Translations under genes and position numbers: made by a program
Notes under the pieces: generated by a model
Told to the model about the DNA's origin: nothing
The model's input: the letters and a program-made list of their open reading frames with translations, nothing else
The model's database searches: none
Assembly (NCBI GenBank): GCA_002269645.1
Contig: NIVC01003710.1
Coordinates: 17,352-81,351, forward strand
Direction of reading: 5' to 3'
Source: Macrostomum lignano
Taxonomy: Eukaryota
Length of the DNA: 64,000 bases
Shown here: positions 7,952 through 64,000 of the stretch, piece after piece
Position numbering within the stretch: the first letter of the stretch is position 1
Layout of the letters: each line of letters starts with the position of its first letter

Positions 7952-8752
7952 CTAGGCAACCGCGGTTGCTAAGAACTCTCCGCACTCGTACTTGGCCCGC
8001 ACGAAGGACTCCCTGACGTCGCTCGGCGAGTCCCGCCTCGGCCTCCGGCCATCTGGCAGTCGGGCCTCCAATACGGCGTTACCAAGCCGGTTGCCAATGA
8101 CGCACAGCGGCATAGCCTGGGCGGGAGTCCAGCTGTCCAGCGCCAGGGAGCGAACCCGGCTGGCGTGGGTGCCGAGCCGCCTGTGGGCGCCGGAGCACAG
8201 GATGCACACCAGCAGGCCGTGGCTGACGATCGCCCAGTCTGGCGCCGGGGCGTGGCAGTCAGCGCAGAGCTCGTTGCCGGGCAAGCTGACGGCCGCCTTC
8301 AACAGGATGTCGGCGGCGCCAGACTGAGACGCGGAGTCCTCCCGGAGGCAGCGTCGGCGATGGCTGCGGCATCGGCGGAGACCGGCAAGGATGCCGGAGC
8401 TGAGCGCCGCGAGCCAGGCGTCGCGATCGGCAGCGCTGGCGGCGACGAATCGGCGACGTCGGCCGTCAGCCGTTACGAGCTGGAAGGCGGCCGAGCCGGC
8501 GGAGGCGTCGGCGACGGTAGCTGCCGCCTGCGCCAGGTCGACGATTTCGGTCGCGGCAGATTTATTAGAATCGGCGTCGATGTGCACAAATAGGCCGTCC
8601 GCGGTGACCCGGGCTGCCCGCCTTCGCGGCGCGAGGTGGCGAAGCGCGTCCGGCAGGCGGCGTCGGGTCAGCAGAAGGCGGCCTTCGTGGAGGTCGGCAG
8701 GTTGGCGGTGGCGGCAGCTCTGCGTTGAGCTGGATGTCGGAGGCGTCCGCCA
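7952..8752 (-). CDS. PH domain + ArfGAP domain (centaurin/AGAP/ACAP-like), terminal exon
   Basis: PH: HEGRLL...FQLVTADGRRRRFVAASAADRDAWLAAL. ArfGAP zinc finger: GNELCADC..PAPDWA.VSHGLLVCILCSGAHRRLG.H.SRVRSL.LDSW...FVRAKY. Acceptor TTTCCCAG at 8753-8754. Confidence 0.93.
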   Translation of the reverse strand, partial: WRTPPTSSSTQSCRHRQPADLHEGRLLLTRRRLPDALRHLAPRRRAARVTADGLFVHIDADSNKSAATEIVDLAQAAATVADASAGSAAFQLVTADGRRRRFVAASAADRDAWLAALSSGILAGLRRCRSHRRRCLREDSASQSGAADILLKAAVSLPGNELCADCHAPAPDWAIVSHGLLVCILCSGAHRRLGTHASRVRSLALDSWTPAQAMPLCVIGNRLGNAVLEARLPDGRRPRRDSPSDVRESFVRAKYECGEFLATAVA

Positions 8753-18058: not shown

Positions 18059-19557
18059 CGCGCCTGGGGTTTGTTTAGACAATTGATTTTATATGTCTGC
18101 TTAGATACCGGAACTATGTGCTTCATAATTCTCCCATGAGAGCTAGCTTCCTGGTTGTTAGTTGCGGCCATAAACTAAAGTTCAGTACGTCTGCATTGAA
18201 CCTTAATCGATTCTATATACCCTTGATGAAGCCACTCAAGCCACCTAGCAGGAGCGCGAGACCATAGACTGTGGCTTCTGCTGCTCTCAAGCATTAGCAT
18301 CAGCAGCTGGTATCTGTGGCCCTAACCCCAGGGTTTTTAGGGCCTCGGAGACGGCCGCTGAATACATTAGCGAATGCTGGAGCGACATATCTAGGCAAAG
18401 AGTATTGAAGCAATATAGATGAGGCGCATCTAGGTAATACTCTTTGCATCTAACCTGTCATCTAGCCTACTATCTAGCCTACCTACATGCAGGTAATATA
18501 GAATCTGTGTTTGGTAGTAGATTGATAAAAAAGGCCACAGAGAGGATAACGCGTACGAATATCGCACCAAAAGTATCCAGGTTGATTCCGAGGGCTCGTA
18601 CACCCTGTGCGAATATGTGCATGCGTGTGTATGTAAGTGCGGCATGGGGGAACTGGGGAGGGAGGGGGTTGGCGCAACGCAACCTGACGACTCTGCGACT
18701 CTCAGTCTGTCTCTCTACTGGCTGCACTTTTTGAATGCTCGCGGTTCCTGCACATGATAGCTGAAACTAGCCAAGGTAACTTCTAGTGGTCCTTGAAACA
18801 AATATTAGAGACACTGCTTTAGTGCCACGTGACAGCGTCAGTTAGGGGGATGGAGGTTAGTTGAGCCGGACGTCTCGTAGAAAACGTTGACAGAGAAGCA
18901 AGCGCTGCTAAGGATCCAAAAGACACGATGAAAATAATTGTCAAGTAAATAGGTATTTTATTCAGGTAAAAGGAGAATCACAATTAATAACGAACCGAAG
19001 TCATACTACTGCAGTTGAAATCATTAGGACTCATTAAAGTGCTTGCTAGTTGCAACTTACCAAAGGTCTATCGGTATTAAGAAAAGCTAGATGACAGGAT
19101 GAGGGCAGGCTGCAGTGTTTCTATTGCTTACAGTGTTGAGAGCCAAGTGCTGTAGATGTGCAGCTCTGAATTAGGTTTTTTTCTAGAATTTGGGATAGAG
19201 AATGAGTGAGGCGGGGCCGGCAGTGCACAACACAGTACAATAGTTGGCCCCAGAGGACCTGGCCCTGTACACAGTCTGTGTGCGCGCAGCATGTAGAATT
19301 TGCGCGGCTAATTTGGACCTGCGATGCAACATGAAACTTTATCATCATTAAATCTAATAATCAACATTTTTTATGTTCCACCTTTTATTTCGTGTTGGCA
19401 GTTTCACGATTCTTGTCTCCTGAGGCCAGGCGTACATAATAGCTTTCTGATTGACATTTAATGCGCTTCGGCCTTATGAAGCTGAGATTTTATTCTGGTC
19501 CAATGACTGGCCTCTGTAGTCTGGTCTAGAAAAAAGATGCACTTGAATGCATCCGTT

Positions 19558-20757: not shown

Positions 20758-23032
20758 CTTACTACTTACTATCGACGGGGGGCAGAGCGCCGCGATTAGG
20801 CCGCAAGGCCCCTATCGCAACCCCAAGCTAAAAACAGAAAGGCGTTAGCCTTGGGGCTGCGCCCACCCCTCGTCGGCAGCAGAAGAGCTCGCGAGAGTGG
20901 CGTCTGCGATCTTCATCCGCCCAGAATCCCGAACGAATGCGCGCAGGTCACGGATCCGGTCCGGAGTGGTGAGCTCGTCCAGCCTTAGCGGGTGACCGAG
21001 GTGACGCCTCCGCGCCTCGTTGAAGTGCGGGCAGAAAGTGACGTGGTGCGTCGAGGTTTCCTCCTCTAGATCACAGAATGGGCAGATGGGGAGCAGCCAC
21101 TTTGCAGTGAAATGTCTCTGGAAGAAGCCATGGCCAGTGATGACCATGCACATCTCCCTGAGGTTTTACTTGAGGAGATTAGATATTCGGATACTTTCCG
21201 GTTTATGACAGGCATTGCGATTCGCGTTTGCCGATATTCGGAGCAGCTGTTCCAGTGGACCTGGTGCTGGCGGTTCAGCCACTCTTGAATGGCGCGATTG
21301 ACTGATGATTTCGAAGAGGGTAACCTTGACTGGGCGTTGCGCTCCACCGGGGGTGCAACCCCGCTTGGCGAGTTGATCTACCAGCTCATTGCTGAGGATG
21401 TTGCTGTGGCCTGGTGTCCAGATAACATTGATCCTGTTGAGAATCGCCAGGGTCTGCAAGCTTTTGAAGCAGTCTGAAACTGACTTGGTTGAGAGCTTGA
21501 TGGAAGACAAGGCCTTAATAGCGGCCTGGCTGTCAGAGTAAAAATAAATGTCAAAGCTGCTGATACCAGCTTTGTACGAATGCTCCGCACACTGGTTGAT
21601 GACTACAACTTCGAGTTGAAAAACCGAGACATTCTCACCAAGATGAAGACTCTCTTGTAAGATCGCACACCCTTGTGGAAAATGGCGATGCCCGCGCCCG
21701 CGAGACCGTCACACAGGGATCCGTCAGTGAAGCAGTGAATGCCCTGGCTTCTACGGTTGATGCCCACATCTAGCGGGTGGCTCCCTCGCGGCGGAAGGGT
21801 ACACTTGAAGCCCTTCCTGAGGATGAAAGTGGGGGTTTGCAGTCCAACTCGTCTAAATTGAGCTGGATGTGTTGAAGGTCGCGACGGATATAGTCCAGAT
21901 GCGGGAAAAGAGTCTTCTCGGGCATGAAGCCCGAGGGAGTGTTAGCAATAAATTTATCACAGATGAGACGCGTGGCATCCTTCATCGCCTCAGCTCTAAT
22001 GAACAAATGCAGCGGAGGCATGCTGAGGATGGTTTTGAGCCCCTCGTAGGGGTGGAAGGACACGCACCGGTGATGGCACGGCAGATGTTACCCTGAAGCT
22101 GGTACAGCCGGTCCCGCACAGTCTTCAACTCCAACGCACTGGACCAGATAACACACGCGTAGGTAATACTGGGTCGAATGATGCCGTTGTAGATCCACCT
22201 GACCGTCTTGGGAGATAGCCCCCAGGTAGGCCCAATGACTCTCCTCACCTGCGCGAAGCAGCGCCTGGCGCGCTCGATGACATTGTCAGCGTGCTTGGTC
22301 CAACGCAAATCGTGAGTGAGCGTCACACATAGATATTTTGTTTCCTTGACTAGGGGGATGCCTTACCATAGATGTTGAGGTTCCGCATGCTCCACTTCCG
22401 CTTCCTGGTGAAGATAATGGCCACCGTCTTAGCGGTGCTAATGGTTAGGCCGTGCTGGGTATCCCAGGCTTGCGCCTTATCGGCGAACTGCTGCATCAAG
22501 CTTCGAAGAGTGCTGGTGTCAGGGCCACTGACAATAGCAGCGACATCATCAGCGTAGCCTGCCTTGACTATGCTGCTGGGGACATCAGCCGTTAGGAGCT
22601 CGTCCATCACGAGATTCCAGAGCAGCGGGGTGAGCACCCCACCTTGGGCTCCGCCTTTAGTAACCGTATGGGTGCAAGTGGCATCCATGAGGGAGGAAGT
22701 CACCTTCCTGTTCCGAATCATAAAGTCGATCCATCGCACAATCCTGGGTCGGACCTTTTTCTGCAAAGGGGAGTCACTGAAGGAGCCAAATAAAACGTTA
22801 TTGAAGGCCCCATCGATGTCACAGAAAAGCCCACAGGCAATCTGCTTGCTCAGGATAGCTTTCTCAATGGCAGAGGTGATAACATGCAAAGCATGCTCGG
22901 TAGTTTTACCTGGTTGGAAGGCGAATTGGTGCTTACTTATGGGTGCAGTCCTCAACTCGCAGTCGTGCAGCCTCCACAAGATGAGTTTCTCCATCAGCTT
23001 GACACAAAAGGATGTTCGGCTGATGGGGCGGA
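20758..23032 (-). mobile_element. 5'-truncated non-LTR retrotransposon (LOA/R1-like): RT + RNase H + C-terminal zinc finger, frameshifted
   Basis: RT: [80 protein letters not shown]. RNase H: FTDGS, FQLE, YSDSQAA, WTPGH..NELVDQLAK. ITGH...CPFC..ET..H...C. 3' tail TAGTAAGTAGTAAG. 14-bp TSD ATAGATCATGGATA at 20744-20757 and 23033-23046. Confidence 0.93.
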
Positions 23033-23162
23033 ATAGATCATGGATAGTCATAGATTATAGATCATAGATAGTCATAGATCATTAGATGATAGATAGTCAT
23101 AGATCATAGATCATAGATCATAGATAGTTATAGATCATAGATCATAGATAGTCATAGATCTT
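23033..23162. repeat. (ATAGATC/ATAGTC)n satellite, right part
   Basis: Same units as 20014-20757. Confidence 0.93.
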
Positions 23163-25624: not shown

Positions 25625-25717
25625 CCAATAGGAAGGGAAGCGAGTTGACGTCACTCTCCACTAGGGAATTGGCAGACACCAGCAGTGGCGCAGGCAAGCA
25701 AGCTCTGCACTGATTGG
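25625..25717 (+). promoter_or_regulatory. CCAAT (25625), CRE palindrome TGACGTCA (25646-25653) and ATTGG (25713) upstream of the GPCR
   Basis: Motif matches and position only. Confidence 0.35.
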
Positions 25718-25869
25718 CTGACGGTCAGGTCTCAGTTTTAGGACTTGGCAGTAAAAAGACAGGCCCTCCCTATAGAAGGGGTGCCGCTCTCACTTCAAAA
25801 CGCTGCGTAGATTTGCAGTTTGCAAAGCTGCGCCGCTATAGTGAAACCTTTATTTATTTAGCCAGGAAA

Positions 25870-27234
25870 ATGTTCGAAGGCACTTTCCTGTACAGGCGCT
25901 ATCCGCTAAACAGCAGCGTATGCGACGCCATCAAATGGAAGCTTAACCTGAGCCAGCGATACATGGACAGCTCGTGCAATCAGAAGGACATCCGCATGTC
26001 GAGCATCTTCCTGCCCGTCAGTCTGCTCGGCCTGAGCCTCAGTCTGTTCAGCGCCGTAGTGCTCATCCGACAGCGTCAGAGAACGTCCTTCCGCACGAGC
26101 CTCATCGCCCTGTCCGCCACCATCAGCTGCTACATGCTCTTCTCCTCTCTGGACTTCATCAACGTCCTGTCCGGGGCCTGTCTCTACTGGCGGGAGCCGC
26201 GCCGACACGCCCAGGTGTTCCTGGGAGCCGCAATCTGCCTGCTGGTCGACACCATGATCTGCGTGCGCAACTGGTGCAATGTGTTCATGACGGCGCAGCG
26301 CACCGAGGCGTTGCTGTTTCCTTTGCGCGTTAAGAAACTGCTCAATAAGAGAAACTTCATCATCTGCCTGCTCACGATGCTGTTCATCTCTCTTCCTCTG
26401 GCCTTGATCCGTTCAATGGCCGAGGTCTTTGTTGTGTGCGCGGACGATGACTCGGGCGAGGTGTACGGCATTGTCGGCTATCCACTGTCGGACGAGGAGA
26501 GCAGCTCCAGCCCGCACCTGTACAGCAGGAAGCGTCATTTCCATTTTCTACTCAACGAAGAGAGCTGGTTCAATCACTACGAGTACTATGGCTTTTTCTC
26601 TGTCCAAACCGTCGCCCCCGTGCTGCTGGTGACGACTTTCTCGCTCATCATGTCTGTTGCCATGCTGCGCCGCTGCAGCAGCTCTGGCGGCGGCGGCAGC
26701 GGTGGCGGTGGGGCTGGAACGAACGCGCAGCTGTCAGCAACCGCCAGCGCCATTGCCAACAACCGACAGAGCAAGCGCAACAAAGTCCGCGCCAGCCGCA
26801 CAGTCCTCTGCCTGGCCGCCATCTTCACCGCCTTGCAGATGCCAACGTTCCTGTTCGCTCTCATGCTGACCAGCTCCTCCCTGCCCGAGGAGTCCACGGC
26901 CGGCAAGATCTTCCAGTTTGTGGCCGAGCTCTGTCTGCTCCTGGACTCGATCCTCAACATCTTCGTCTACGCCTACTATGTGCCAGACTTTCGCTTATGC
27001 TGCGCGCGCATCTGCGGTCGTCTAGCTGGCCGCCGTGACGGCGGCGGTGGCGGCGGCGGCGGCGGCGTCGGTGGCAGTGGAGTCGGCGCTGAGCGCGGCG
27101 GACGCTGCACTGGTGGCCGAGGCCGAGGCCGCTCCAGCGGGACAGCCGCGGCGGCGACGCTGGTGGTGCTGGAGGTCAGACAGCCGCTGCAGTCCTGCCG
27201 CTCAGCTGAAGACGACGCAGAAGAGGAGGACTGA
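25870..27234 (+). CDS. Single-exon rhodopsin-class (class A) orphan peptide-receptor-like GPCR, about 454 aa
   Basis: Seven hydrophobic segments; TM3 end MTAQRTEALLFPLR, TM6 FTALQMP, TM7 DSILNIFVYAYYVPDFR; N-terminal NSS/NLS glycosylation sites. Start taken at AAAATG 25870. Confidence 0.88.
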   Translation: MFEGTFLYRRYPLNSSVCDAIKWKLNLSQRYMDSSCNQKDIRMSSIFLPVSLLGLSLSLFSAVVLIRQRQRTSFRTSLIALSATISCYMLFSSLDFINVLSGACLYWREPRRHAQVFLGAAICLLVDTMICVRNWCNVFMTAQRTEALLFPLRVKKLLNKRNFIICLLTMLFISLPLALIRSMAEVFVVCADDDSGEVYGIVGYPLSDEESSSSPHLYSRKRHFHFLLNEESWFNHYEYYGFFSVQTVAPVLLVTTFSLIMSVAMLRRCSSSGGGGSGGGGAGTNAQLSATASAIANNRQSKRNKVRASRTVLCLAAIFTALQMPTFLFALMLTSSSLPEESTAGKIFQFVAELCLLLDSILNIFVYAYYVPDFRLCCARICGRLAGRRDGGGGGGGGGVGGSGVGAERGGRCTGGRGRGRSSGTAAAATLVVLEVRQPLQSCRSAEDDAEEED

Positions 27235-45182: not shown

Positions 45183-45331
45183 TCTGTCGCTTATCCAAGC
45201 CCCAGAATCTTCTCCTCATCAGTTAGCCAAGTCTCTGTGGCAGCCGGAATACCCAGAAGAGCAGCGAACTGGATCAGCGCAGTCAGCAGCAGCAGCAGGC
45301 GTCGGCGTTGGCCGCCCTGTTCCACGAGATC

Positions 45332-46041
45332 ATGCGAGAGCGGAAGCTTGCCGCCGTGGCTGCGGCAGCCGCTCCTGGAAGCAGCAATCCGTTTAGTCTG
45401 CTCATGGAGCAGCAACAGCCGCAGCCGCCGCCACCGCCGCCGCCCGCGATGCTTCTCCCGCCACCCCCGCCGCCGCCGCTACCGTCGCTGCAGTTCGGGC
45501 CGGAGCAGGTTGGCCGCGTCTGCGAGACCTTGGAAGAATCCGGCGACATCGACCGGCTGGGCCGCTTCCTCTGGTCGCTGCCGGCCAACCCGCTGCTGTG
45601 GGAGGCGCTGAACCGGCACGAGTCCGTGCTGCGGGCCCGTGCCATCGTGGCCTTCCACACCGGCAACTACAGGGAGATGTACCACCTCATGGAGATGCAC
45701 CACTATGGCAAGGAGTCGCACGCCAAGCTGCAGGCCATGTGGCTGGAGGCGCACTACTTGGAGGCTGAGAAGCTCCGGGGCCGCTCGCTGGGCCCGGTGG
45801 ACAAGTACCGGGTGCGGAAGAAGTACCCGATGCCCAGGACCATCTGGGACGGAGAGCAGAAGACGCACTGCTTCAAGGAGCGAACCAGAGGCTTGCTGCG
45901 CGAGTGGTACCTGCAGGACCCGTACCCCAACCCGGCCAAGAAGAGGGAGCTGGCTGCGGCTACTGGCCTGACGCCCACCCAGGTGGGCAATTGGTTCAAG
46001 AACCGGCGACAGCGGGACCGGGCCGCCGCGGCTAAGAGCAG
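45332..46041 (+). CDS. six3/6: Six3/6 (optix) homeobox protein, exon 1: SIX domain + homeodomain
   Basis: [30 protein letters not shown]...[46 protein letters not shown]...[19 protein letters not shown] is diagnostic of Six3/6. Phase-2 donor AG|GTGAGC at the conserved position. Confidence 0.97.
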
Positions 46042-46075
46042 GTGAGCTGACCAGTTATAGCGGTTGCTATGTGCT

Positions 46076-52880: not shown

Positions 52881-53611
52881 ACCCCCAGTTTTATTTACTG
52901 AATGAAGCGATGCAGATGAATTGATGGTGCTCGGAAGGCAGCTGAGGGAGATTAACCCAAGGCGCCTCCAGTGACAACCCCGATACAAAAATAATTGAGC
53001 CGGGCCATTTGAGGAAATTTGTTTAGAAAACAGCCGCAGGTGCAACCAATCAGGATCGGGGCAGTCCCCGCTGCTATCAGCAATTAGCGATTGACTTTGC
53101 CCATCCCTACTGGAAGAGAATCAATCACTGTGCTAAAAATGATCCAGGCTAAAAAAGGAAAAAATCTTAGGTTTTCAATCGTACAGAGAGTCTAATCTAA
53201 GTGGAAGCCAGTGTCTCGGCAATTTTACATCTCGGCAGCTTTTAAAGAAAAGATTGCCCCGTTTAGCCCGCGTCAATTAGGCAAATTTGTTGTAAAGCCG
53301 GCGCACCTGCAATCTGCGGATTTCGCTTTGAGTTGATTGGCCGGTCAACAAGAAGGAGATGGCGGCGATTGAAAGATCAGAACCAGCTTTTAGGGTTCGC
53401 CGGCCTCGGTTGTTTCTCTGTCCGCGAGAATTTGTTTATAGATAATTTATTTTTCAATAAAAATTGGCCCCACGATTACGTTTGTATTGGGTTCTAAATC
53501 CGATAATTACTCGATCGCTTTTCTAGAGATTTAAGCGATGCGAATTGGAGCAAATGTTTTGTCAGTCTGGGCCGGAAAAAATTGCCCCACCTTTTTGAGT
53601 CAAAACAGGTG

Positions 53612-54146
53612 CATTGGCGCCAAGTTGGATTTTAGGGGCGCCAAATTAGATTTTAGGGGCCCAAGTTGAATTTTAGGGGTGCCAAGTTTGATTTTAGGAG
53701 CGCGAACTTCGATATCAAGGCGCCAAATTAGATTTAAAGGGCGCCAAATTGGATATCAAGGCGCCAAGTTGGATATTTGGGGGCGCCAAGTTTGATTTTT
53801 GGGTGCGCCAAGTTGGATTTTAGGGGCGCCACACAAGTTGGATTTTCGGGGGTGCCAAGTTGGATTTTAGAGGCGCCAAGCTGGATTTTAGAGGCGCCAA
53901 GTTGGATTTTAGGGGCGCCACACAAGTTGGATTTTCGGGGGTGCCAAGTTGGATTTTAGGGGCGCCAAGTTTGATTTTTGGGTGCGCCAAGTTGGATTTT
54001 AGGGGCGCCACACAAGTTGGATTTTCGGGGGTGCCAAGTTGGATTTTAGGAGCGCCAGGTTGGATTTTAAGGGCGCCAAGTTGGATTTTCGGGGCGCCAA
54101 GTTGGATTTTAGGGGCGCCAAGTCTTTTTAGGGCGCCAATTTGGAT
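53612..54146. repeat. About 21-bp minisatellite (GGCGCCAAGTTGGATTTTAGG)n abutting the provirus terminus
   Basis: Directly visible. Confidence 0.92.
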
Positions 54147-54154
54147 ATCAGGGC

Positions 54155-54424
54155 AGTAGTATATAAAAAGACGCTTCTAGACCCAGAGCACTTTTTTAAT
54201 GACCGTTTTAAGGGTCTAGAGGGGGGACACGGGTGGTAAATAAAAAAACACATCTAAACACCATTAACACATCTAATCACCCATAATCACCCCTAACAAT
54301 AAAATCACTTCCCAACACTTCCAAACACTCCCCAACACCCCCCTCGCGTCCCCCCTCTTAAGACCTTACAAACGGCCATTAAAATAAGGTCTGATCTAGA
54401 AGCGTCTTTTTCTATACTACTACT
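54155..54424. repeat. Terminal inverted-repeat structure: two arms of about 80 bp around a G-poor spacer
   Basis: AGTAGTATATAAAAAGACGCTTCTAGA (54155) versus the reverse complement of the arm ending at 54424, AGTAGTAGTATAGAAAAAGACGCTTCTAGA; similarity continues through TTTAATG.CCGTTT and AGAGGGGGGAC. Confidence 0.85.
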
Positions 54425-54478
54425 CTATAACCCCTTGCCCGCGCCGCAGGCGCGAAGGGTCTTTTTCTGTTACTAAAA

Positions 54479-54793
54479 ATGACCCGAGTTTACACCTTTT
54501 CTGTTAGTGATACTTTTGAGACTGTTGCTAAAAATGCAGAGATAATAAAACAACATATTTTGAATGGAATAATTGATGAAGTTTATTTAAAATATGACGA
54601 CAAGCACGACCTAAAACTTTATCCATTAGAGCTAGATGAGATGTATGATTTAGAACAAGAGGGTGAGTTAATATTTCAACTTGGAGATTATTTAAATTCG
54701 GATGATTGGGAGGTTAGATCAACAGATTCCGAATCAACAAATAGTTCATATGAAACCAGTGATTCAGAGAATGAAAGTGAAATTTTTATGTGA
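54479..54793 (+). CDS. Viral hypothetical acidic protein (104 aa)
   Basis: Intact ORF with AAAAATG start; no recognised motif. Confidence 0.6.
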   Translation: MTRVYTFSVSDTFETVAKNAEIIKQHILNGIIDEVYLKYDDKHDLKLYPLELDEMYDLEQEGELIFQLGDYLNSDDWEVRSTDSESTNSSYETSDSENESEIFM

Positions 54794-54809
54794 AAAAAAT
54801 ATTTAAAAA

Positions 54810-55034
54810 ATGAACTATTATTCTATAACAGAAACGACATTTATTGTGAAAAATATATATAAAAAAATGAAGGTAAACTATTCCTACATCGGAAATGTGC
54901 CGATTAATGAACTTAATGAAAATTTAAGTTTGATAACAGTTGAACAAATGTCAATAATAATATTAGTAACAATTATAGTAATAATATTGTTTTTGTTTGT
55001 TATAAAAAATTTACTACCATGTTGTCTCAAGTAA
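54810..55034 (+). CDS. Viral small membrane protein (C-terminal hydrophobic helix, PCCLK end)
   Basis: SIIILVTIIVIILFLFVI segment; AAAAAATG start. Confidence 0.5.
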   Translation: MNYYSITETTFIVKNIYKKMKVNYSYIGNVPINELNENLSLITVEQMSIIILVTIIVIILFLFVIKNLLPCCLK

Positions 55035-55044
55035 TTGTTCGAAC

Positions 55045-56192
55045 TTAGTTCGCTGATATTAGTTGGTTCTCATAAAACGAACCCAATATTTCTTCACCGT
55101 CCTTATCAGCAATTATATAGGTTGTAGGATTGGTATTTAAAACTTTACTGATAGTAAATTTCTCACTTATCTTCCAATATCCTTTTCTTCCTTTTTCAAA
55201 CTTATCTTTCCATTTATAGATATAAACAGAATCACCAACCTTAAAAGATTTCTTTTTATTTTTTTCAAATTTTCCAAAAGTAACTTTAACGTTTTCAGGA
55301 TTGTTATAAGCTTGTTGAGGAGTCATCTTTATCGCCGAATGATATGAATTGTTATAATCTTTCACTACGTCTGGTAATATTTTTACCCATTTTTGGTTAC
55401 CATTAAGACTAAACTGAAACCATAATTTCTTACCTAAAGTTCTATTAAATCTTTCTATTAATGCGTTTTTACTCTCTCCATAAATAGAATAAATTTTATT
55501 AATATACTCCCCATTCGCGTCTTTTTTCCTTTCTTGTCCTTTTTCAAAATGATATAATTTATACATATGAGGATTGTAAAATTCTTTTCCTTCGTCAACA
55601 CACAAACGTTCGCTTTTTTCTCCAAGACTTCTAAAAGCAGCAGCAACATCCTCTCCTTTTTTGGATTTCAAAGGAACAGCCCACGCGTATCGAGTAAAAC
55701 CATCTAATATGGTTAAGATATATTTATATCCTCTTTCGTTCGGCATCGACATTAAATCAGCATACCAAATTTCATTCTTTTTGAAGTTCATGATTTTTCT
55801 ATAAAATTTAGGTTTTCGATATTCTTTATGAAGAACCTTAGCCTTATCATAACTTAGCCCACTACCACTTAATAACAAACATTCGACACAATTATTACCA
55901 TGTTGGTTGTAATTAATTCCTAAACCAAATTTAACTTTAGATTGTAGAATTTTTTTAACCATCCACCTAGTTAATCTTTGCCCTACCGATAATCCCTGCA
56001 AGTTATCTAATCCTTGAATCATTTTTTGATCGGCTTCATGTTTTAATCTTAATGCTTCCTCGGGCGGGTTCTTGTCAGCATCTCTATATGCTAAGTCGTG
56101 ATAGTATGCTAACCAATCAATCCCATTTATTGGAATTGAATCGGCTTTTGGGTGTCATCAGGATTTAATCTCAAATCTAAGCGAGTGCCGGG
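55045..56192 (-). CDS. Exon 2 of the PLA2X-integrase fusion: PLA2 catalytic region followed by a Polinton rve (DDE) integrase
   Basis: PGTRLDLRLNPDDT(P)KADSIPINGIDWLAYYHDLAY...EADQKMI...KVKFGLG, then KVLHKEYRK, WYADL, YILTILDGFTRYAWAVPLKSK, VDEGKEFYN, IERFNRT, YNNSYHSAIKMTP, FKVGD..GSFYENQL. One -1 homopolymer frameshift near 56150; no chromodomain. Confidence 0.92.
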
Positions 56193-56495
56193 TAGTTTAC
56201 CCTCAATCTTTCGAAAGAGGCTGGAGCACACCTTAAGCGGCGATAATTACCGCCCATCTCCGTCTGCTCTCTGAACCTTCTCCTTATATTTAAAATACTT
56301 AGGAGCTTGGCTGCGCATTGCCACCGTGTCTTCAAGCTTTTTACCTTTGGGAAGAGGAGTTACCTCTGTTCCTTCAAAAGATTTCTCAATTGAAGTGGTA
56401 CTTGAAGCTGTATGATGGGTTTCACGCAATTTGGAGATGTCGCCACAAATAGTGACTAGCAAGGACATTGCCTTCCTCACTCAGGCCACGGGTTA
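56193..56495 (-). ncRNA. Group I self-splicing intron (IC1-like, 303 nt)
   Basis: P AAAUUGCGUGAAA; Q GGCAAUGCGCAGCCAAGCUCCUAAG; R GUUCAGAGAGCAGA; S AAGGUGUGCUCC. P3 CAUCUCC/GGAGAUG; P7 G(A)GAGCA/UGCUCC; P5abc with GAAA L5b; 11-nt-like receptor CCUAAG..UAAGG; U.G at the 5' splice site. Removal restores MNFTG-PGT. Confidence 0.93.
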
Positions 56496-56621
56496 ACCTG
56501 TGAAGTTCATTGATGGTAGGTGTAGTTCCCCTGTATATTTACCAGTAGTAAAGATTGGTGGTAAGCTTGTTAATCCTTTTTGAACATCTAACAATCCTCC
56601 TTCAAACACTATTTGGTTCAT
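56496..56621 (-). CDS. Exon 1 of the PLA2X-integrase gene (MNQIVFEGGLLDVQKG...GELHLPSMNFTG)
   Basis: AAAAATG start; 42 codons ending in GGT. GELHLPxxNFTG joined to PGT is the parvovirus-like PLA2 Ca-binding loop. Confidence 0.88.
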
Positions 56622-57170
56622 TTTTAATAGCCTTAAAAATACATGAAAGCACCAATTGTTTTGCAAACTCTTCAATGGTTGGTTGTTTAACTTTTTTATA
56701 GTTATTATCTACGCTAGTTAAGTATCTTTTATTTCTCCAATTTTCAGACTTTTTAATCTGATCATCGTCTTTGTAACTAAATGAAGAAGCGGGGATGAAA
56801 TGATCAATATCTAACTTTCCAGTATAATCTTTTGATACATAATAATTTCTTGTGAAATTTAACCAATCAAAAAAGAATTCTTTTGTGCAACCAAGATATG
56901 AGATATAGTCCTTGTCATTAAAATTTTTCAACGCCCAATTTATTCTATTTCTAATTAAAACAATATGTTTGTAATTATCATCAGTGTGATACTTATTTTT
57001 TCTATATTCATTCCATTTATCTTTATTGTTTTTTATCCAAATAGCAGATGAGGTATTATGACAAGATCGACAATCATTTCTAAATTTTTTTGAATCATTT
57101 CTCCAAAAATAAAATTCTTTGTCATCGGTTTTTCTTGTTTACACTTAGTACAAATCTTATTAGTTTCCAT
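56602..57170 (-). CDS. HNH-family endonuclease with N-terminal CxxC-CxxC zinc ribbon (giant-virus type), frameshifted near the 5' end
   Basis: METNKICTKCKQEK...CRSC...YLGCTKEFFFDWL...LDIDHFIPASSF...ENWRNKRYL..VDNNYK; TATAAAATG start at 57170. Confidence 0.75.
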
Positions 57171-57197
57171 TTTATAAAAAATAAATTTAACAATTAA

Positions 57198-57862
57198 TTA
57201 AACACCAGTATGTCCAGCAGCTTTCGCAGCAGCTAAAACAAGTTTTCGTGGTGTTTTAAATCCATCACCAACAGCTAGCTTGTTATTTATAGAATTAACA
57301 ATCCTTTTATACAAGCTGGTATTTTTAACAGCTCCTCCTAACTCATCATAAAAAATTCTAGCACTTATTAATTCATCCCTAGTATATAAATCAGGGTTAA
57401 ATTTTACCCTAGGGTTCATAACAATATTATATGCTCCACCCAATTCTCTATATAGTTCATTTCGATTTTTATCAACTCCACCAATTCGATAATTATTATT
57501 ACCTAAATCTGTCGCAGCAATACTAGCTGGTACTCTTGGATATTGTTCCCGATCGCCCCGCTCTGCACGTCTAATCTCTGCAATTCTCAATTGTGCTTGA
57601 TCAACATCATAAGCAGGCGGCTCATCTAAAAGTTCATCCTCTTTTGGCTCAGTATTTTTAGCAATTTTTTCCAGAAGATCTTTATCTGTTTTTTCTAGTT
57701 CACTAATTTTCCCAGTAATAGGATTAACAAAAGGAGCAGCAAATCTTTCACCGCTAATTGTATTCCTAACTTTCTTTTTTGTAAATTTCTAACAAAATCA
57801 GAATATCTTTGCTTCTCTTTATAAATCGCTAACTCTCCATCAACGTCCATAAATTGACTCAT
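57198..57862 (-). CDS. Viral hypothetical protein (frameshifted; includes ORF 57198-57590)
   Basis: AAAAAATG at 57862; reading frames join through A-runs (MSQFMDVDGELAIYK...AAPFVNPITGKISELEK...LRIAEIRR...HTGV*). Confidence 0.55.
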
Positions 57863-57896
57863 TTTTTAACATAAAAAACTTTTTTAACTTAAAAAA

Positions 57897-59450
57897 ATGG
57901 CTGAAACAAAAACTATGTGGAGTGATAAATTTCATTTCAAAAAGCACCGACAGTATATTAATGAGGTCAGAGCAAGAGATTTAAATTATACCCTACCAAC
58001 AAGTGATAATTCAAATAACTTTACTACTGGAACGGTAACTTTTGACATCGGCGCAACCAACACTATATTGGATATGAAAAATGCATTTTTCCCGTGTTAG
58101 ATGGTTGTATACTAGAAATGATGGAACTGCTCTTGCAGCCGGAGATATCGCAGATCGATCCGGAATAATAATAGAAAATGATTGGTTTTATAAATGTTTT
58201 TCCCAAGCTCAACTAACTGTTAATGGTGCTGAGGTTGAGACATCATCAAACCCCGCAGAGATTAATGGAGTTTTGAAACATTTAAATTATACTTATTTAT
58301 CAAAACAAGTTGGTGATAATGTTGGGTGGATGCCGGATAAAGGTAACGGTCAAGCAGTAGTTTTCCCTAATGTACAAAACGCAGCCGGTGCAGATACTGC
58401 AGCGCTAATTGTTTACCTTAATACAAACATAGTTCCAGTTGTAACCACTATGACTAATACAAAAGATATTAATACTGGTTTTATAGATAGACGTCAGAAT
58501 AAATTCCCAGTCGCGGTTTTAACCACAGCAACAGCATATGAGCAGGACTTTTCAATCTTCCCTATTTGGGTTTTCTCACCAAATCGGGTATGGAAAGGAT
58601 TAAAATTTGGGATACAGTTGCAAATATCTGGTGGATATCAGCCTAGGATACTTTATGGAACCTCAATTTCAACCGATATAGCAGTTCGTATAGATTCAAT
58701 TCAATTAGTCGTACCAACTATTGAGGTAACAGCCCCACTTTTAAAACACATCGATAATCAGTTAACGCATGATCAGGAAATATTTTATTTGAATCGTCGA
58801 CATTTTATGCGAACCATTAATAATAACCAGGATTCATTCCAGTGGCAAATACTGACATCAAAACGTCGGGTGAGATATATTTTTGTTTGGTTTAAGATAA
58901 CAAATAGAAGGAGTAAAAGAGCAAATGGGGATTTATATTGGCTTCAATCCGGTGCCATAGCAGAACAAGCAGCCACCGCAACAGACAATGCGGCTGCAGC
59001 TATTAACGAGTTTAATGTTCAGAATATCCGCCTGCAGGTTGATGATCAATATTATCCGGTTAAAGACCCCTAAATTTAAATATAGCAAATAATAATGTTA
59101 ATGATTTTATAAAATATTATCAAGATTATGCTAAAAATGAAGCGTATGCCGTCCCTCAGTACACACCCACAGAGTTTCTAAACATTCATCCAGTGGTTGT
59201 TTATGATCTAACGGCACAGAAAGAAAACGTAGCCAATATTGGACTTAATTATATGTTAGAGATTAATAAAACCGGTAATCAGGCACTTGACGCCCACGTA
59301 TTGTTTCTAGAGGAATATATGTCAATTGCTAAAGCTGATGGCACGATTGTTCGGGACGCCCATTGTAAAATGAGTGCAGTGCAAAGCACGTCGCACCACT
59401 TTAGTGTCGCAGGTCTCCGACCGTCGCGCCTATTTAAATTATTTCTTTAA
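57897..59450 (+). CDS. Major capsid protein (double jelly-roll, Polinton hexon/PY), in three frames owing to homopolymer indels near 58091 and 59070
   Basis: FDI..TNTILDMKNAFF(R)VRW; FSQAQLTVNGAEVET; IQLVVPTIEV; RVRYIFVWF; NIRLQVDDQYYP..(L)NL; VVVYDLTAQKE; DAHVLFLEE. Size and position fit an MCP. Confidence 0.82.
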
Positions 59451-59452
59451 AA

Positions 59453-60249
59453 ATGGTAAAGGCAAAACACGATAAGATATTTCCAAATGATCCTTTTCTT
59501 TGTTTAGTAATCGGAGGATCAGGTAAAGGAAAAACACACTTTGTTTACGATTTATTAACAACAGATGGAATGTTAGACTATAATAATTTAATAATTTATA
59601 CTAATAAACCTAGAATAAAATATTATGAATTTCTTAAACATGGATTAAAAAACAAATTAAAAAAAGATGTCTTGTTTAGAATGTTAAGAGCATATGAGCA
59701 ATATGAGGATGATGACGAACCGCGATTTAATCTAGCAGACATTGAGGATTTATGTAAAACAATGGCACAACAGCCAGAAAACATCACCGATCGCCCGAAG
59801 GGTCGCGGACTTCGTCCGATCGCGCCCAACTGTTAGAGTATCAACCCGATTAGCCTATGATCAAATTCCAAAAATGATAAAACACTAATTATTTTGATGA
59901 TTGTATTAATGACGGTGATCAAGAATTGCAAAAGGAAATTTTTGTTAGTGGTAGAGGAGATGGAATTGGAGCTTTTTATCTTACTCAATCCTTTAGAGAA
60001 TTAGAATCGATTATAAAAAAGAATGCTAGCTGTTGTGTAATGTTTGATTTAGATAACTATGATCTACAAAATATTCACGCTAGATTTAATCCCGGATTGG
60101 ATGCAAAACCATTTAAAAGTATGTGTAAAAAAATTTGGGATGATAGCCAATACAAACATATTTATATCAATCCGAGGTTAGAAAGGAAACATAGAATTTT
60201 AACAAATTTGATAAAAGAAGATAATGAGGAAGAAGAGGATCGTGCATAG
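59453..60249 (+). CDS. A32/FtsK-like genome packaging ATPase (frameshifted at about 59829-59895)
   Basis: Walker A GGSGKGKT; Walker B LIIFDDC (reconstructed); SGRG..FYLTQSF..IKKNA..F. Confidence 0.9.
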
Positions 60250-60284
60250 CACGCGGACTTCGTCGTTAATTTCCCACTATAAAA

Positions 60285-61059
60285 ATGACTACAAATTTAA
60301 ATACTATAAAACAATTGGTAGATCGAACTAATTCAAAATTTAGTACAACATTACAGTTTATAATGACAACCAGCGAGCAACGGATTCAATTGCGCGATCC
60401 ATTACAACTTGATCAAAGCCTAAGTTATCAAATAGGTTTAATCTATTTTCGGTTTTCAACATGCCTCAATTAATTAATGCAACAAATAATCAATTTAGAT
60501 ATTCTAAAGATTCCGGAGCCAATTGGACAACATTTAGCGTTAACCCAGGAGCGTATAGCTATACTGATTTGAATGCTTATATAGAAGGAGAATTAACAAC
60601 TAATGGTGATTGGGTAGCAGGAGCAATTGTTATAGGTGTTGATTTACCGTCTGGCAGATTCACACTATCACTAGGATCCGGATATCAGGTTGATTTCACA
60701 ATTGCAAATTCACTCAGAACCATACTTGGATTTAATTCCCGAATAGTTACCACATCAAGCACCGGTGATACCGTGGGAAATATTGAGGGTGGAGTAATAC
60801 AATTAATATAACAACCGACATATCAAACGGCGTTATATAACAGATAATAATGGAGTTTTGGTTCAACGTGGAATTATTTATTCAATCCCATTTCTTGCTG
60901 TTCCAATTGGAGAGAAAATGATTGTTCACCCAAACCCCAATATATTATTAAATCAATATAGTTCAATCAATTTATATTAGGATTGTAGATGAAAGCGATA
61001 GATTAATAAGTTTTGGTGGGCAGTCAATAACAATAATTTTACGTATAAAACAGGTTTAG
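60285..61059 (+). CDS. Minor capsid protein (penton, single jelly-roll), frameshifted
   Basis: YQIGLIYF..N..INATNNQFRY, NPGAYSYTDLN, VDFT..NSLRTILGF, then IYSIPF..PIGEKMIVHP and IRIVDESDRLISFGGQSITIILRIKQV*. Confidence 0.85.
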
Positions 61060-61099
61060 ACCGAAGGTTCGCGGACTTTGTCCGTTTCCTATAGTAAAA

Positions 61100-61304
61100 A
61101 TGGGTAATCGAACAACATGTTCGCGTGCAAAGCACGATAATAATAATAATTTAAAAAACAATCAGAAAAAGTTAAAAAAGCTGAAGATAATTACGAACTA
61201 GAACTAGCAAAATTAAGGCAGTTACAAGCTGATAAAATAAGAAAGGAATTGTTAAAACCCACACCTACGAAACTAACTAAAACCAAGAGTTTTTCAGGAA
61301 CATA
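61100..61304 (+). CDS. Small basic/coiled-coil viral protein starting MGN (frameshifted)
   Basis: AAAAATGGGT start; continues after an A-run shift as KKAEDNYELELAKLRQLQADKIRKELL..SGT*. Confidence 0.4.
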
Positions 61305-61306
61305 AA

Positions 61307-61746
61307 ATGACCATGACGTGGGATGATTTTAAACAAAGATATGGAACGGACACAACAAGCAATATCGAATTAACAAATTGGGCGAGGCAGTTAAAAATAA
61401 AACCATTCAGATGTGTTATGCGAGATGAGATCAAAGACTTACCACAATATGGATCTTTCATTGTTAATATTGAAACAACAAAAGAAAATGGTGTTCATTG
61501 GTCGCAGTTTATTCCAAACCTAAACTTGTTTATTTTTTTGATTCATATGCGCTTCCTCCGTTACAGGAAATAAAAGACAAATTTAATCATACTAAAAATC
61601 GTTTATGTGGAGATCATCACGAACAATTTCAAACATTTGATAAAAGTTATTGCGGGCAAGCGGCGTTGTATTTTTTATATCGACTTTCGAATGAAGCTCG
61701 TGTAAACCCCGAAGTATTTAAGAATATTTTAGACTCTATAAAATAG
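61307..61746 (+). CDS. Adenain-like cysteine protease (one frameshift at 61500)
   Basis: TSNIEL..., IVNIE...GVHW(V)AVY, YFFDSY, QFQ.FDKSYCG: His-Asp-Gln-Cys catalytic set. Confidence 0.92.
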
Positions 61747-61756
61747 ACAGTAAAAA

Positions 61757-63800
61757 ATGTTATTTTCTGGAACACCCTCATGGAACGGAACAACAAGTAG
61801 TGGTGGTGGTGGCACATCTGGTGGAATAAGTGTTACCTTCGGAGATAATCGATATATTAATGAGGATGAAGGTTATAAAAAAAGTGAAGTTGATACTAAA
61901 CTAAATTTAAAAAGAAATGTTGCAGATTCCTATACCAAAACTCAAATAGATGATTCACTAAATCTGAAACGGAACGTAGCCGATTCCTATACCAAAACCG
62001 AAGTTGATAATTCATTAAATTTAAAACGCAATACAGCCGATTCTATACCAAAAGAAGTTGATAATTCATTAAATTTAAAACGCAATACAGCCGATTCTTA
62101 TACCAAAACCGAAGTTGATAATTCATTAAATTTGAAACGGAACGTAGCCGATTCTTATACCAAAACCGAAGTTGATAATGGATTAAATTTAAAAAGAGAT
62201 GTAACTGATTCTTATTCTCGAACTGATTCTGATTCACGTTATGTTCAAACCACCGCAACCGGAAACCTAGATATGAGCAACAACCGAATTATAAATGTTT
62301 CAATTACAACTAGTGATTCAGTGGTTGATAAGAACTATGTCGATAATCAAGTTGCCACTCGTAGTGGTAATATTAATATGAATAATTTTAAATTAACAAA
62401 TTTATTATTTGGAACAGATAACGCAGACTCGATAACTCTAGGCCAAGTAAATGAGCGAGCTAATGCAACCAACGCCGATATTTTTACCACGCCGCTTACA
62501 TCAAATACTTCAAATCCTGATGTTGTTCTTACAGCATCTGAAAATGGCAACACAGCTTTTCGAGTTGGAGATGGAAGCCTTGCGACACAATGGTCACCAA
62601 ATACCGGAACCACAACCAATATGGAAATTCAATTTGAATTTTTAGGTTATAATAGAAGAATATTTGAATTAAGAATTACAGGCAGTGAAACAATTGAGAT
62701 ACCCTCGGGTGGTCGGTTCGCGCGCAAAAAATGTTGCTACCGATTCATGGACAACATTAACTACGTCGGGATCACCAGTTCAAGCAACATCATTTGCTCT
62801 ATCTAATTTAACGACTAATTTTTGGAAATATTATAGCGTATTCTTCCCAACTGGTGGTACCGGTACACAACCTATCGAGGTTCGTCAAATACAATTATTT
62901 GAACACCGTGTTGAAATTCAAGATCTTAATTGGCCAACTCAAATACTTTCTGCAGTTCCGCGAGCGTACGTAGATCAGCTAGCTACTCCAACATCAAATG
63001 GTAGAATGTCTGGAAGCGATAAAAATAAATTGGATGGAATACCTGCTATTGATGCGGCCTTGTTCGAACCAGTAATTTGCAATTGGTCTGGATATCAAAA
63101 TCCAACAACCGCCGGAGATATATATCCAGTCGGTTCTTTAATTGGTGACGCTTCTTATATCGATTATCAAAATGGAGCTAGAATTACTCGTGAAACTGGT
63201 GGGGTCAGTGGTGCTTTACAATTCAATTTCACACATTTTCAAAATATATCTGCGTCTTTCTTTTTCCGAGTTGCTAATTCTACAGGAACTGGTGCAGATG
63301 CGGTTTGGTTTTATGCATACTGTCACCAACGTCCAACATCGGAAAGCGGGGCAGGTTTATCAACAGACGCTGGATTGATAGTTTTTGCTAGTGAGTGGCA
63401 TGATAAATTTGGCCTACTTTGGAGTTCAAAAAAATCAGACGGATCAAGCCGCGCGGATGTTAATACTGACGCGGATCAAACGGTAGATTATGCAAATATT
63501 GATAACGGTGATTGGCATCTGTTTGAAATTAATATTTTAAATCAAAGGGTTTGGTATAGAATTCATACATACAATGTTGCTGGTGATTCTTATACCCTCA
63601 TTGGACAGAACGTTTTCACATATGATAGTGGAACTTGGGGAACTTTAGATAAATCTGGAACCCTTATGGGTTTTGGTGCTCGAACTGGTGGAGCGGATGC
63701 TGCACATTTTATTCGTGGTGCAGTTGTATGTGGTAGTACGTCGTTTGGTTATGTTTTTCCATCTACTGGTTATTTGGAAAAACCTCCTACTCAAATATAA
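61757..63800 (+). CDS. Fibre/receptor-binding protein: 19-aa stalk repeats, discoidin/F5-8C-like domain, C-terminal L-lectin-like domain (frameshift near 62700-62725)
   Basis: (KRNVADSYTKTEVDNSLNL)x5-6; LDMSNNRIINV / NMNNFKLTNL..GTDNADS; AFRVGDGSLATQW...W...DSWTTL; GRMSGSDKNKLDGI; GADAVWFY..NGDWH..MGFGARTGG..AHFI. Confidence 0.75.
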
Positions 63801-63833
63801 AATATTTATATATATAAAATATTTCTATATAAA

Positions 63834-64000
63834 ATGGCTTTTAGTAGAACCCCATCGATGCGGCAAAATAATGTTATTATTCCTATTCCTAAACAAGAAT
63901 CAAATATAAAAACATTCAAATCTCATACCAAATTTTTATTTAGTACTGTAAATGTTCAGGATAATAAGAAGCTTCAAGAATTAATTAAGTTATTAAAAAT
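63834..64000 (+). CDS. Start of the next viral ORF (MAFSRTPSMRQNN...), truncated by the window end
   Basis: TATAAAATG start, open to position 64000. Confidence 0.45.
   Translation, partial: MAFSRTPSMRQNNVIIPIPKQESNIKTFKSHTKFLFSTVNVQDNKKLQELIKLLK

Follow-up and report, generated by a model that had tools for sequence, protein, structure and literature searches.

A group I intron in the PLA2-integrase gene of Polintons in animal chromosomes and its probable relation to GGNCC avoidance

Group I introns have been published from protist PLVs of Rhodomonas (44), Paulinella (53) and Desmodesmus (2), as given in the accessible part of PMC12220804. Like the intron described here, they match RF00028 and lie within PLV genes, with lengths of 309–376 bp. 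Their hosts, however, are protists, the interrupted gene is an unannotated ORF of ~50 aa upstream of the capsid gene, and that part of the text describes no nuclease link, omega-A or site avoidance, all of which are found here. The earlier note on this DNA, made from the sequence alone, knew of no group I intron in a Polinton or adintovirus or in bilaterian nuclear DNA. This novelty does not extend to Polintons broadly, given the published PLV introns (PMC12220804), but the open-access main texts searched describe none from animal Polintons or animal chromosomes, and likewise no link between an intron and a restriction site.

The IC1 and IE introns of nuclear rDNA (Tetrahymena, Didymium, Diderma; available sections of PMC3679873) share with the present introns the P1–P9 core, P5abc, the A-rich bulge, the GAAA loop and a receptor-like motif, and also carry nuclease genes in peripheral loops. 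Their nucleases are of the His-Cys type and their hosts are rRNA genes, whereas here the nuclease is of restriction type and the interrupted gene is a protein gene of a proviral element in animal chromosomes. The same sections describe nuclear group I introns as confined to microbial rRNA genes, and for bilaterian mitochondria only group II introns are on record in the accessible text of PMC9240083. The RPB1 introns of Bodo saltans virus comprise, as here, parental nuclease-bearing introns and ORF-less offspring lying in conserved motifs, and for giant viruses the masking of homing sites by introns in virus–virus competition has been proposed (PMC5871332, in the part available). The nucleases of that system are of the HNH and GIY-YIG types and its setting is cytoplasmic; genome-wide avoidance of a short site is not described in that part. 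In the collaborative homing of phages, an ORF-less intron likewise stands beside a free-standing nuclease that also occurs intron-borne (PMC3984707, excerpt; collaborative homing is also mentioned in the accessible text of PMC11296320).

The nuclease reported below resembles those of Eco47II/Sau96I-type R-M systems (PF09553) in its Pfam family, its PD-(D/E)xK residues and a fold near that of EcoO109I. Unlike those systems, it has no methylase partner, and protection appears to consist of site loss and the intron. The elements resemble alpha-class adintoviruses and PLA2X Polintons (PMC8502044, sections available) in their parvovirus-type PLA2, rve integrase, A32 ATPase, pPolB (in family A) and AGT-type terminus, but here PLA2 and integrase form one fused protein, whose gene a ribozyme interrupts, and in family B a primase-D5 helicase is present. 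Those sections describe the PLA2 genes of adintoviruses as intron-less. In nematode Polintons, PolB contains an HNH domain that may derive from an intron, with no intron present (PMC10748475, accessible part).

The intron and the gene that it splits

The intron lies in an element joined to animal DNA in the window, the whole stretch of 64,000 nt that was analysed. The features, in window coordinates, are the following:

45227–46045, plus strand: host SIX-class homeobox gene in the animal flank (PF16878, E 6.6e-45)
54150–54426, plus strand: left end of the element, which starts with AGTAGT at 54155; a pair of 32-nt inverted repeats; flank different from that of a sister copy
54155–64000, no strand: element DNA with no GGNCC (0 observed, 12.7 expected) and no Gly-Pro in ORFs of at least 100 aa
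55045–56192, minus strand: exon 2 of the PLA2-integrase gene, beginning with a Pro codon; it completes the parvovirus-type PLA2 domain and continues into the fused rve integrase (PF00665)
56193, minus strand: terminal nucleotide of the intron, A (omega-A) where G is canonical, after an intact P9.0
56193–56495, minus strand: ORF-less, IC1-like group I intron of type A, 303 nt (RF00028, covariation, intron-less alleles)
56223–56271, minus strand: P7 (56271–56265 with 56228–56223) with the G-binding G-C pair; the 3' strand of P3 and P8 lie in between
56330–56407, minus strand: the extension P5abc, which has an A-rich bulge and a GAAA loop and shows compensatory change in each of P5a, P5b and P5c
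56476–56504, minus strand: P1, formed by the end of exon 1 and the internal guide sequence, with U.G at the 5' splice site between 56496 and 56495
56496–56621, minus strand: exon 1 of the PLA2-integrase gene, 42 codons, ending in a Gly codon
56602–57170, minus strand: free-standing HNH/endonuclease-VII-like gene directly upstream, frameshifted (PHROG matches, E 1e-7, on a sister copy)
58081–63800, plus strand: virion module with putative major capsid (by position only), A32 packaging ATPase, putative minor capsid, protease-like and fibre-like genes

The insert is a group I intron, a conclusion that is practically certain. Rfam RF00028 matches it at 56202–56505 on the minus strand with 62.0 bits (E 3.7e-15) against a gathering score of 50; a fast-filter gathering scan of the whole window missed the intron through filter loss. 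The boundaries are set by natural intron-less alleles of the same genome (L085, L087, L090 and L091), whose frame runs on uninterrupted across the site. Removal of the intron regains the conserved reading frame, and the genome holds 24 intron-less cognate alleles (3 A-like and 21 B-like), an exact-pattern count that is a lower bound. None of these 24 has the exon-1 end of the window type, MNFTG. Spliceosomal removal was considered and set aside, since by inspection the GT two bases upstream of the 5' splice site and the nearby AGs lead to a stop or a frameshift.

The helices were drawn on the window copy and counted on an alignment of 18 sequences (nine of type A, five of type B, two of type C, the metagenome contig L100 and a giant-virus intron). 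Pairing is present in 94.8% of the cells, and both-sided changes occur in 43 of 73 pairs, among them 6 of the 7 pairs of P3 and 4 of the 6 of P7. None of 500 shuffles reached the observed covariation, and slid-partner controls paired at 37–48%; drawing the structure on the window copy favours the drawn pairing over these controls, and relatedness inflates covariation tests. The compensatory changes in P3, P5abc, P6, P7 and P9 lie between clearly different lineages. P1 folds in types A, B and C and in L100, and the G-C pair of the guanosine site is retained in 17 of the 18 sequences. P5abc with an A-rich bulge and a GAAA loop is an IC1 hallmark; these features are present together with a P6a/b receptor and P2.1. 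Minimum free energy folding alone gives a weak signal (z -2.1), as a pseudoknot would. The earlier note had the coordinates, the minus strand, the length and the split of NFTG/PGT all correct, and its P1 with the U.G pair, P2, P2.1, P3, P4, P5abc, P6, P7 G-C pair and P9 are as it described them, with covariation. A covariance-model search and a look for alleles with and without the intron, both proposed there, gave the significant match and the intron-less alleles reported above. Its P8 (GGCG/CGCC) needs revision, as a register closing at J8/7 forms 5 of 5 pairs in all 54 type-A copies, whereas the former one forms 4 of 4 in 40 of the 54.

The PLA2 domain is matched by PF08398 (E 1.2e-8) on a natural intron-less allele. 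The intron is positioned between the Gly and Pro codons of a GPGT motif, of which G41-P42-G43-T44 is invariant in 16 of 16 aligned PLA2 proteins. A contiguous GPGT was present in 20 of 20 viral loci, half of the scan patterns having demanded that motif, and none of the 20 viral PLA2 loci showed similarity to the intron. Many viral contigs of 2.4–3.5 kb carry the same PLA2 type in intron-less form (L213–L226, L229, L230) and may represent small single-stranded DNA viruses. In the window copy, exon 2 has a frameshift ~40 nt from its start, and several further genes of the element are frameshifted. The slot upstream of PLA2 is occupied in other copies by divergent HNH genes or by an Eco47II-like gene; a census of 78 loci gave HNH at 40, the Eco47II-like nuclease at 35 (28 of them inside type-B introns) and neither at 3. 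In two copies, L008 and L025, the HNH-like gene upstream and exon 1 of PLA2 share a reading frame.

The element in the animal genome

The sister copies of the window element, which form family A, carry a protein-primed PolB (PF03175) 9.5–11.3 kb from the intron on 11 contigs, chosen by matching contig lists; in the window copy this position is beyond the contig end. Family A is therefore taken to be a Polinton. Several genes of the virion module are frameshifted, and the putative minor capsid, protease-like and fibre-like genes are unassigned by Pfam; Pox_A32 (PF04665) was matched in a sister copy (E 9.8e-7), and the DJR capsid domain was matched in family B only. Besides the PLA2-integrase, family B (L193–L194) encodes a primase-D5 helicase, an A32 ATPase and a capsid protein of the double-jelly-roll type, with no pPolB in the 12 kb examined. 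The two families align over the PLA2-integrase only, at 64%, and a swap of replication modules seems to have taken place. The genome as a whole is rich in Polintons, with at least 119 pPolB matches in several distinct families. Of the termini, the left end was examined: nested inverted repeats of 32 and 19 nt lie just inside it (54150–54426), and outside it adjoins a 21-nt tandem array of ~25 copies (53600–54153), the flank of a sister copy being different.

Contamination or misassembly, by which the element would belong to a protist or a free virus rather than to animal chromosomes, is very improbable. The contig does stop inside the element, at the end of the window, and the GC content is 0.34 in the element and 0.48 in the flank, but more than 140 matches are spread over many contigs, some longer than 0.5 Mb. 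The left ends of 15 family-B copies lead into 13 distinct flanks, and at the same base the window copy and a sister copy pass into flanks that differ. The SIX gene and a GBBH host gene are on the same window, and the stretch was recovered from 19 runs of 7 studies (2015–2024) under one organism label, one of which may be the assembly source. These host genes, the locus-specific junctions and the runs of several studies support the placing of an IC1-like intron within a protein-coding gene of a Polinton that has integrated into the chromosomes of an animal.

The host is taken as bilaterian because the genome holds multi-exon Prospero genes, and Prospero is not known from outside the bilaterians; searches of the genome for miR-124 and miR-2 came back blank and were uninformative on the host clade. 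The host part of the window (1–53000) is dense in micro- and minisatellites (61 tandem-repeat rows). It contains a split GBBH/TauD gene at 15150–18088 and, labelled by eye, an ArfGAP-like gene at ~7952–8600, a GPCR-like ORF at 25714–27234 and reverse-transcriptase fragments at 21166–23054.

Intron types and the terminal nucleotide

The genome contains ~150 copies of the intron, of three types and at one insertion site. Exact patterns gave, as lower bounds, 76 omega-A and 22 omega-G copies of type A, 24 copies of type C and 36 hits of type B (reversed control, 7), and 122 of 125 A-like genes have an intron. Type B is ~865 nt long, ends in G, as does the intron of L100, and contains an ORF that a long stem (-23.3 kcal/mol) loops out of P2.1. 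Type C (L081, L082, L084, L086, L095, L096) shares P2.1 and P5abc with the IC1-like types, and its core is IE-like by its motifs. A scan of six loci with Rfam missed L006, L093 and both type-C loci, so the assignment of type C rests on motifs and pairing rather than on an Rfam score. Its 3' boundary is ambiguous by one base, the in-frame reading giving G-A-G instead of G-P-G. L100 is intermediate, with an IC1-like P4 and an IE-like J6/7. Type C looks like a product of domain swapping between ribozyme subgroups.

Terminal G is nearly universal in group I introns. Omega-A is the majority state of type A and is mixed with omega-G across the intron tree, in both main clades; the tree, from which four loci with an unparsed 5' site were dropped and outside which the truncated loci L205 and L206 stand, shows mosaic copies. 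Of 37 omega-A copies, 35 have an open exon 1, and exon 2 is fully open in 16 of the 26 examined. In exon 1, pN/pS is 0.30 for omega-A and 0.28 for omega-G copies; in exon 2, over its first 46 codons, the values are 0.07 and 0.06. The exons of omega-A copies are under purifying selection, but with mosaic copies the signal may predate omega-A or derive from omega-G via recombination. Omega-A copies show compensatory changes in P3, P5b, P5c and P9, and alternative nearby Gs either shift the frame or fall inside P9. Precedents exist in the accessible text of two reports: the Diderma L2066 intron ends in A and self-splices efficiently (PMC3679873, section 9), and the coral ND5-717 intron, which lacks the terminal G, ligates exons in vivo at lower efficiency (PMC6545197).

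The missing terminal G lowers the claim of activity, not that of descent. Some of the intron copies likely splice, and the omega-A copies probably do so as well. The alternative is that a founder mutation to omega-A blocks exon ligation and the copies are non-autonomous passengers, with the integrase started from an internal Met and PLA2 supplied in trans. An in-frame Met does sit after the PLA2 domain, and the frameshifts in the window copy and others, the ten examined copies in which exon 2 is not fully open and the near universality of the terminal G would all fit a dead intron. This alternative is nevertheless unlikely, though of some weight, as omega-A is found in both main clades mixed with omega-G, exon 1 is kept open with a pN/pS similar to that of omega-G copies, the helices of omega-A copies carry compensatory changes, the alternative Gs are unusable, and spliced omega-A introns are on record. 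A joint across the intron was found in none of four contig sets (three of them RNA by guess); contigs drop rare forms, and the result speaks neither way. None of the data sets listed as containing the stretch is RNA. A dead omega-A intron is compatible with a shield at the DNA level, as considered below.

The nuclease, GGNCC and the site of the intron

Every Gly-Pro dipeptide is spelled GGNCC. The intron sits between the third and fourth bases of this word, and its insertion destroys the site. In four intron-less alleles, GGNCC lies exactly at the Gly-Pro codons, and in three of them it is the only site in the stretch.

The ORF of the type-B intron matches PF09553, the Eco47II family (E 2e-7, 31.2 bits, cut-off 25.9), and the free-standing copy at L081 scores 23.5 bits, below the cut-off. 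The PD-(D/E)xK residues D65, E76 and K78 are invariant in 15 of 15 sequences. The predicted model of the compact, 163-aa protein (pLDDT 91.8) finds its best fold match in EcoO109I (Z 9.6, r.m.s.d. 3.8, 162 residues aligned), followed by PspGI and AvaII, whereas a sequence search of the PDB with the nuclease profile gave no match. The sites of EcoO109I and AvaII contain GGNCC. Homologues of Eco47II are taken to cut GGNCC in the available part of PMC10305163. No methylase was present in any locus of the genome itself or in L100, whereas in distant homologues (27–39% identity), several of which are on giant-virus contigs, a C5 methylase adjoins the nuclease in 84 of 89 loci. Among 17 close homologues in other assemblies, 10 read on, by eye, into the same intron core. 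The metagenome contig L100 has the same PLA2-integrase gene with an omega-G intron at the same site and the nuclease in P2.1 (80.6 bits). In the nuclease tree, free-standing copies nest inside the intron-borne clade (95/88, deeper nodes being weak), and the tree suggests that they arose by exit from the intron, not by entry into it, unlike in phage collaborative homing as set out in the excerpt of PMC3984707. All 35 nuclease-bearing loci among the 78 have an intron and none of four intron-less loci has the nuclease, a weak association in that 28 of the 35 loci were selected by their intron and A-like genes have one almost throughout.

Relatives of the intron outside the genome are few. An intron model run across 90 nuclease loci matched only L100 and L134, the latter a giant-virus contig with a related intron core in RPB1 (57 bits, E 5e-16) and also an Eco47II-family homologue locus. 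In viral contigs, a search with a single nuclease sequence gave no match, a 16-nt P1 pattern gave 21 chance matches and a P5 pattern none; phage records gave no match. An origin from a microbial eukaryote or its virus had been proposed for the ribozyme; the nearest outside relatives, a Polinton-like metagenome contig and a giant-virus RPB1 intron, fit the viral part of that proposal and not an rDNA source.

Avoidance of GGNCC was predicted from the site of the Eco47II family before sites were counted. Besides the window element, family B is empty of the word (0 against 15.0 expected), and the pooled, non-overlapping element DNA of 26,242 nt has 0 against 31.2 expected. GGNCC is the only absent one among 256 XYnZW patterns, the next lowest ratio being 0.60. 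Gly-Pro occurs in none of the element ORFs examined, a 1108-aa stretch of PolB included. Zero GGNCC was never reached in 200 runs each of order-1 and order-2 Markov models; an order-3 model reached it in a run for the window element, and under synonymous-codon shuffles, where the contrast is weaker, zero came up in 31 of 300 for the window element and 2 of 300 for family B. Controls contain the site (observed/expected): 120/150 in host DNA, 3/5.3 in another Polinton family, 91/108 in intron-less viral PLA2 loci and 368/495 in methylase-protected loci. Stray sites occur at a few loci (L045, L050, L088 and others). A sum over 66 of the genome's own loci (10 against 159) was set aside, the loci being near-identical.

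The best reading, held with moderate confidence, is that a methylase-less nuclease purged GGNCC from the element and that the intron hides the one unavoidable site, predicted splicing restoring the protein. The nuclease would circulate among elements without a methylase and cut GGNCC; intron-less rivals would be cut and then either disappear or gain the intron through homing, when the break is repaired on an intron-plus template. The ribozyme would leave the mRNA by the two-step, guanosine-initiated route and so restore the PLA2-integrase. ORF-less introns, the window copy included, would then be freeloaders with immunity but without the weapon, and omega-A could be tolerated, perhaps with slower exon ligation. 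It is fairly likely that shielding of GGNCC is the reason for the intron's site, and rather probable that the insert is a group I ribozyme, active now or until recently, of an endogenised Polinton/adintovirus-like family, retained as a shield against the methylase-less nuclease. Some observations weigh against shielding. The nuclease is ~30% identical to its methylase-linked relatives, and its specificity may have changed. The 21 B-like intron-less alleles persist, the two examined being without the nuclease. A 5-bp cutter would hit host DNA too (120 sites in 53 kb), so expression of the nuclease would have to be restricted or tied to a lytic phase.

That toxicity problem is sidestepped if the nuclease is by now a homing endonuclease with a long site, the intron occupies a conserved motif in the manner of homing introns, the HNH genes of the upstream slot drive collaborative homing and the avoidance of GGNCC is left over from earlier pressure. 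The coexistence of intron-less, ORF-less, nuclease-bearing and free-standing states matches the cycle of PMC3984707 (excerpt), and the restriction-fold homing enzyme I-Ssp6803I has a 17-bp site (PMC3424549, accessible part). A long site, however, would not clear all four GGNCC words out of two families with no alignable stretch beyond the PLA2-integrase, and the best fold matches of the compact protein are short-site restriction enzymes; ordinary intron homing is accordingly judged improbable. Selection could also have come from outside, through the Eco47II-type R-M system of a giant virus infecting alongside or of a previous host, the element's own nuclease being a captured passenger. The linkage of distant homologues to methylases, their presence on giant-virus contigs and the related RPB1 intron of L134 are in line with such an enzyme, and a need of PLVs for protection from giant-virus restriction enzymes has been proposed (PMC12220804, part available). 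This version is quite improbable, as no helper virus was seen and type B, like 10 of the 17 close homologues, has the nuclease within the intron, with its catalytic residues kept and a long stem looping it out.

In the most far-reaching reading, which is plausible but tentative, a GGNCC cutter acquired from an R-M pair of giant-virus type operates without modification, every site has been erased from the element, with Gly-Pro excluded from its proteins, the intron serves as an immunity factor for the one Gly-Pro that has to stay, and splicing takes place in animal cells, mostly with a terminal A; if true, these would be the first active group I ribozymes in bilaterian chromosomes. The insert is a real group I intron in an unexpected place and part of a larger system. 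The earlier note, which had treated a single insert, was right about the intron and left the terminal A, the three intron types, the Eco47II-like nuclease and GGNCC avoidance unmentioned. Omega-A, the intron types, the intron-less alleles, the nuclease and GGNCC avoidance together argue for a maintained selfish or defence system, not a one-off passenger. With ~150 copies in a protein gene in animal chromosomes, it becomes testable whether a group I intron can splice from mRNA in an animal cell, and the same copies bear on the site of Polinton transcription. The link to a methylase-less nuclease offers a concrete reason for an intron position, where conservation of the motif is usually the sole explanation given, and suggests that Polintons compete with one another. 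The natural omega-A and omega-G variants and the three cores at one site give ribozyme biochemistry a ready series for comparison.

Family A is likewise poor in CCNGG (4 against 12.7 expected), family B is not (18 against 15.0), and a second nuclease pressure on family A is possible. Double-hairpin inserts of ~30 nt occur in loops L5, L5c and L6 of the introns (L031, L048, L053, L089, L099) and at the 5' end of PLA2 (L002–L029); they resemble the traces of a tiny palindromic element that is mobile inside these Polintons.
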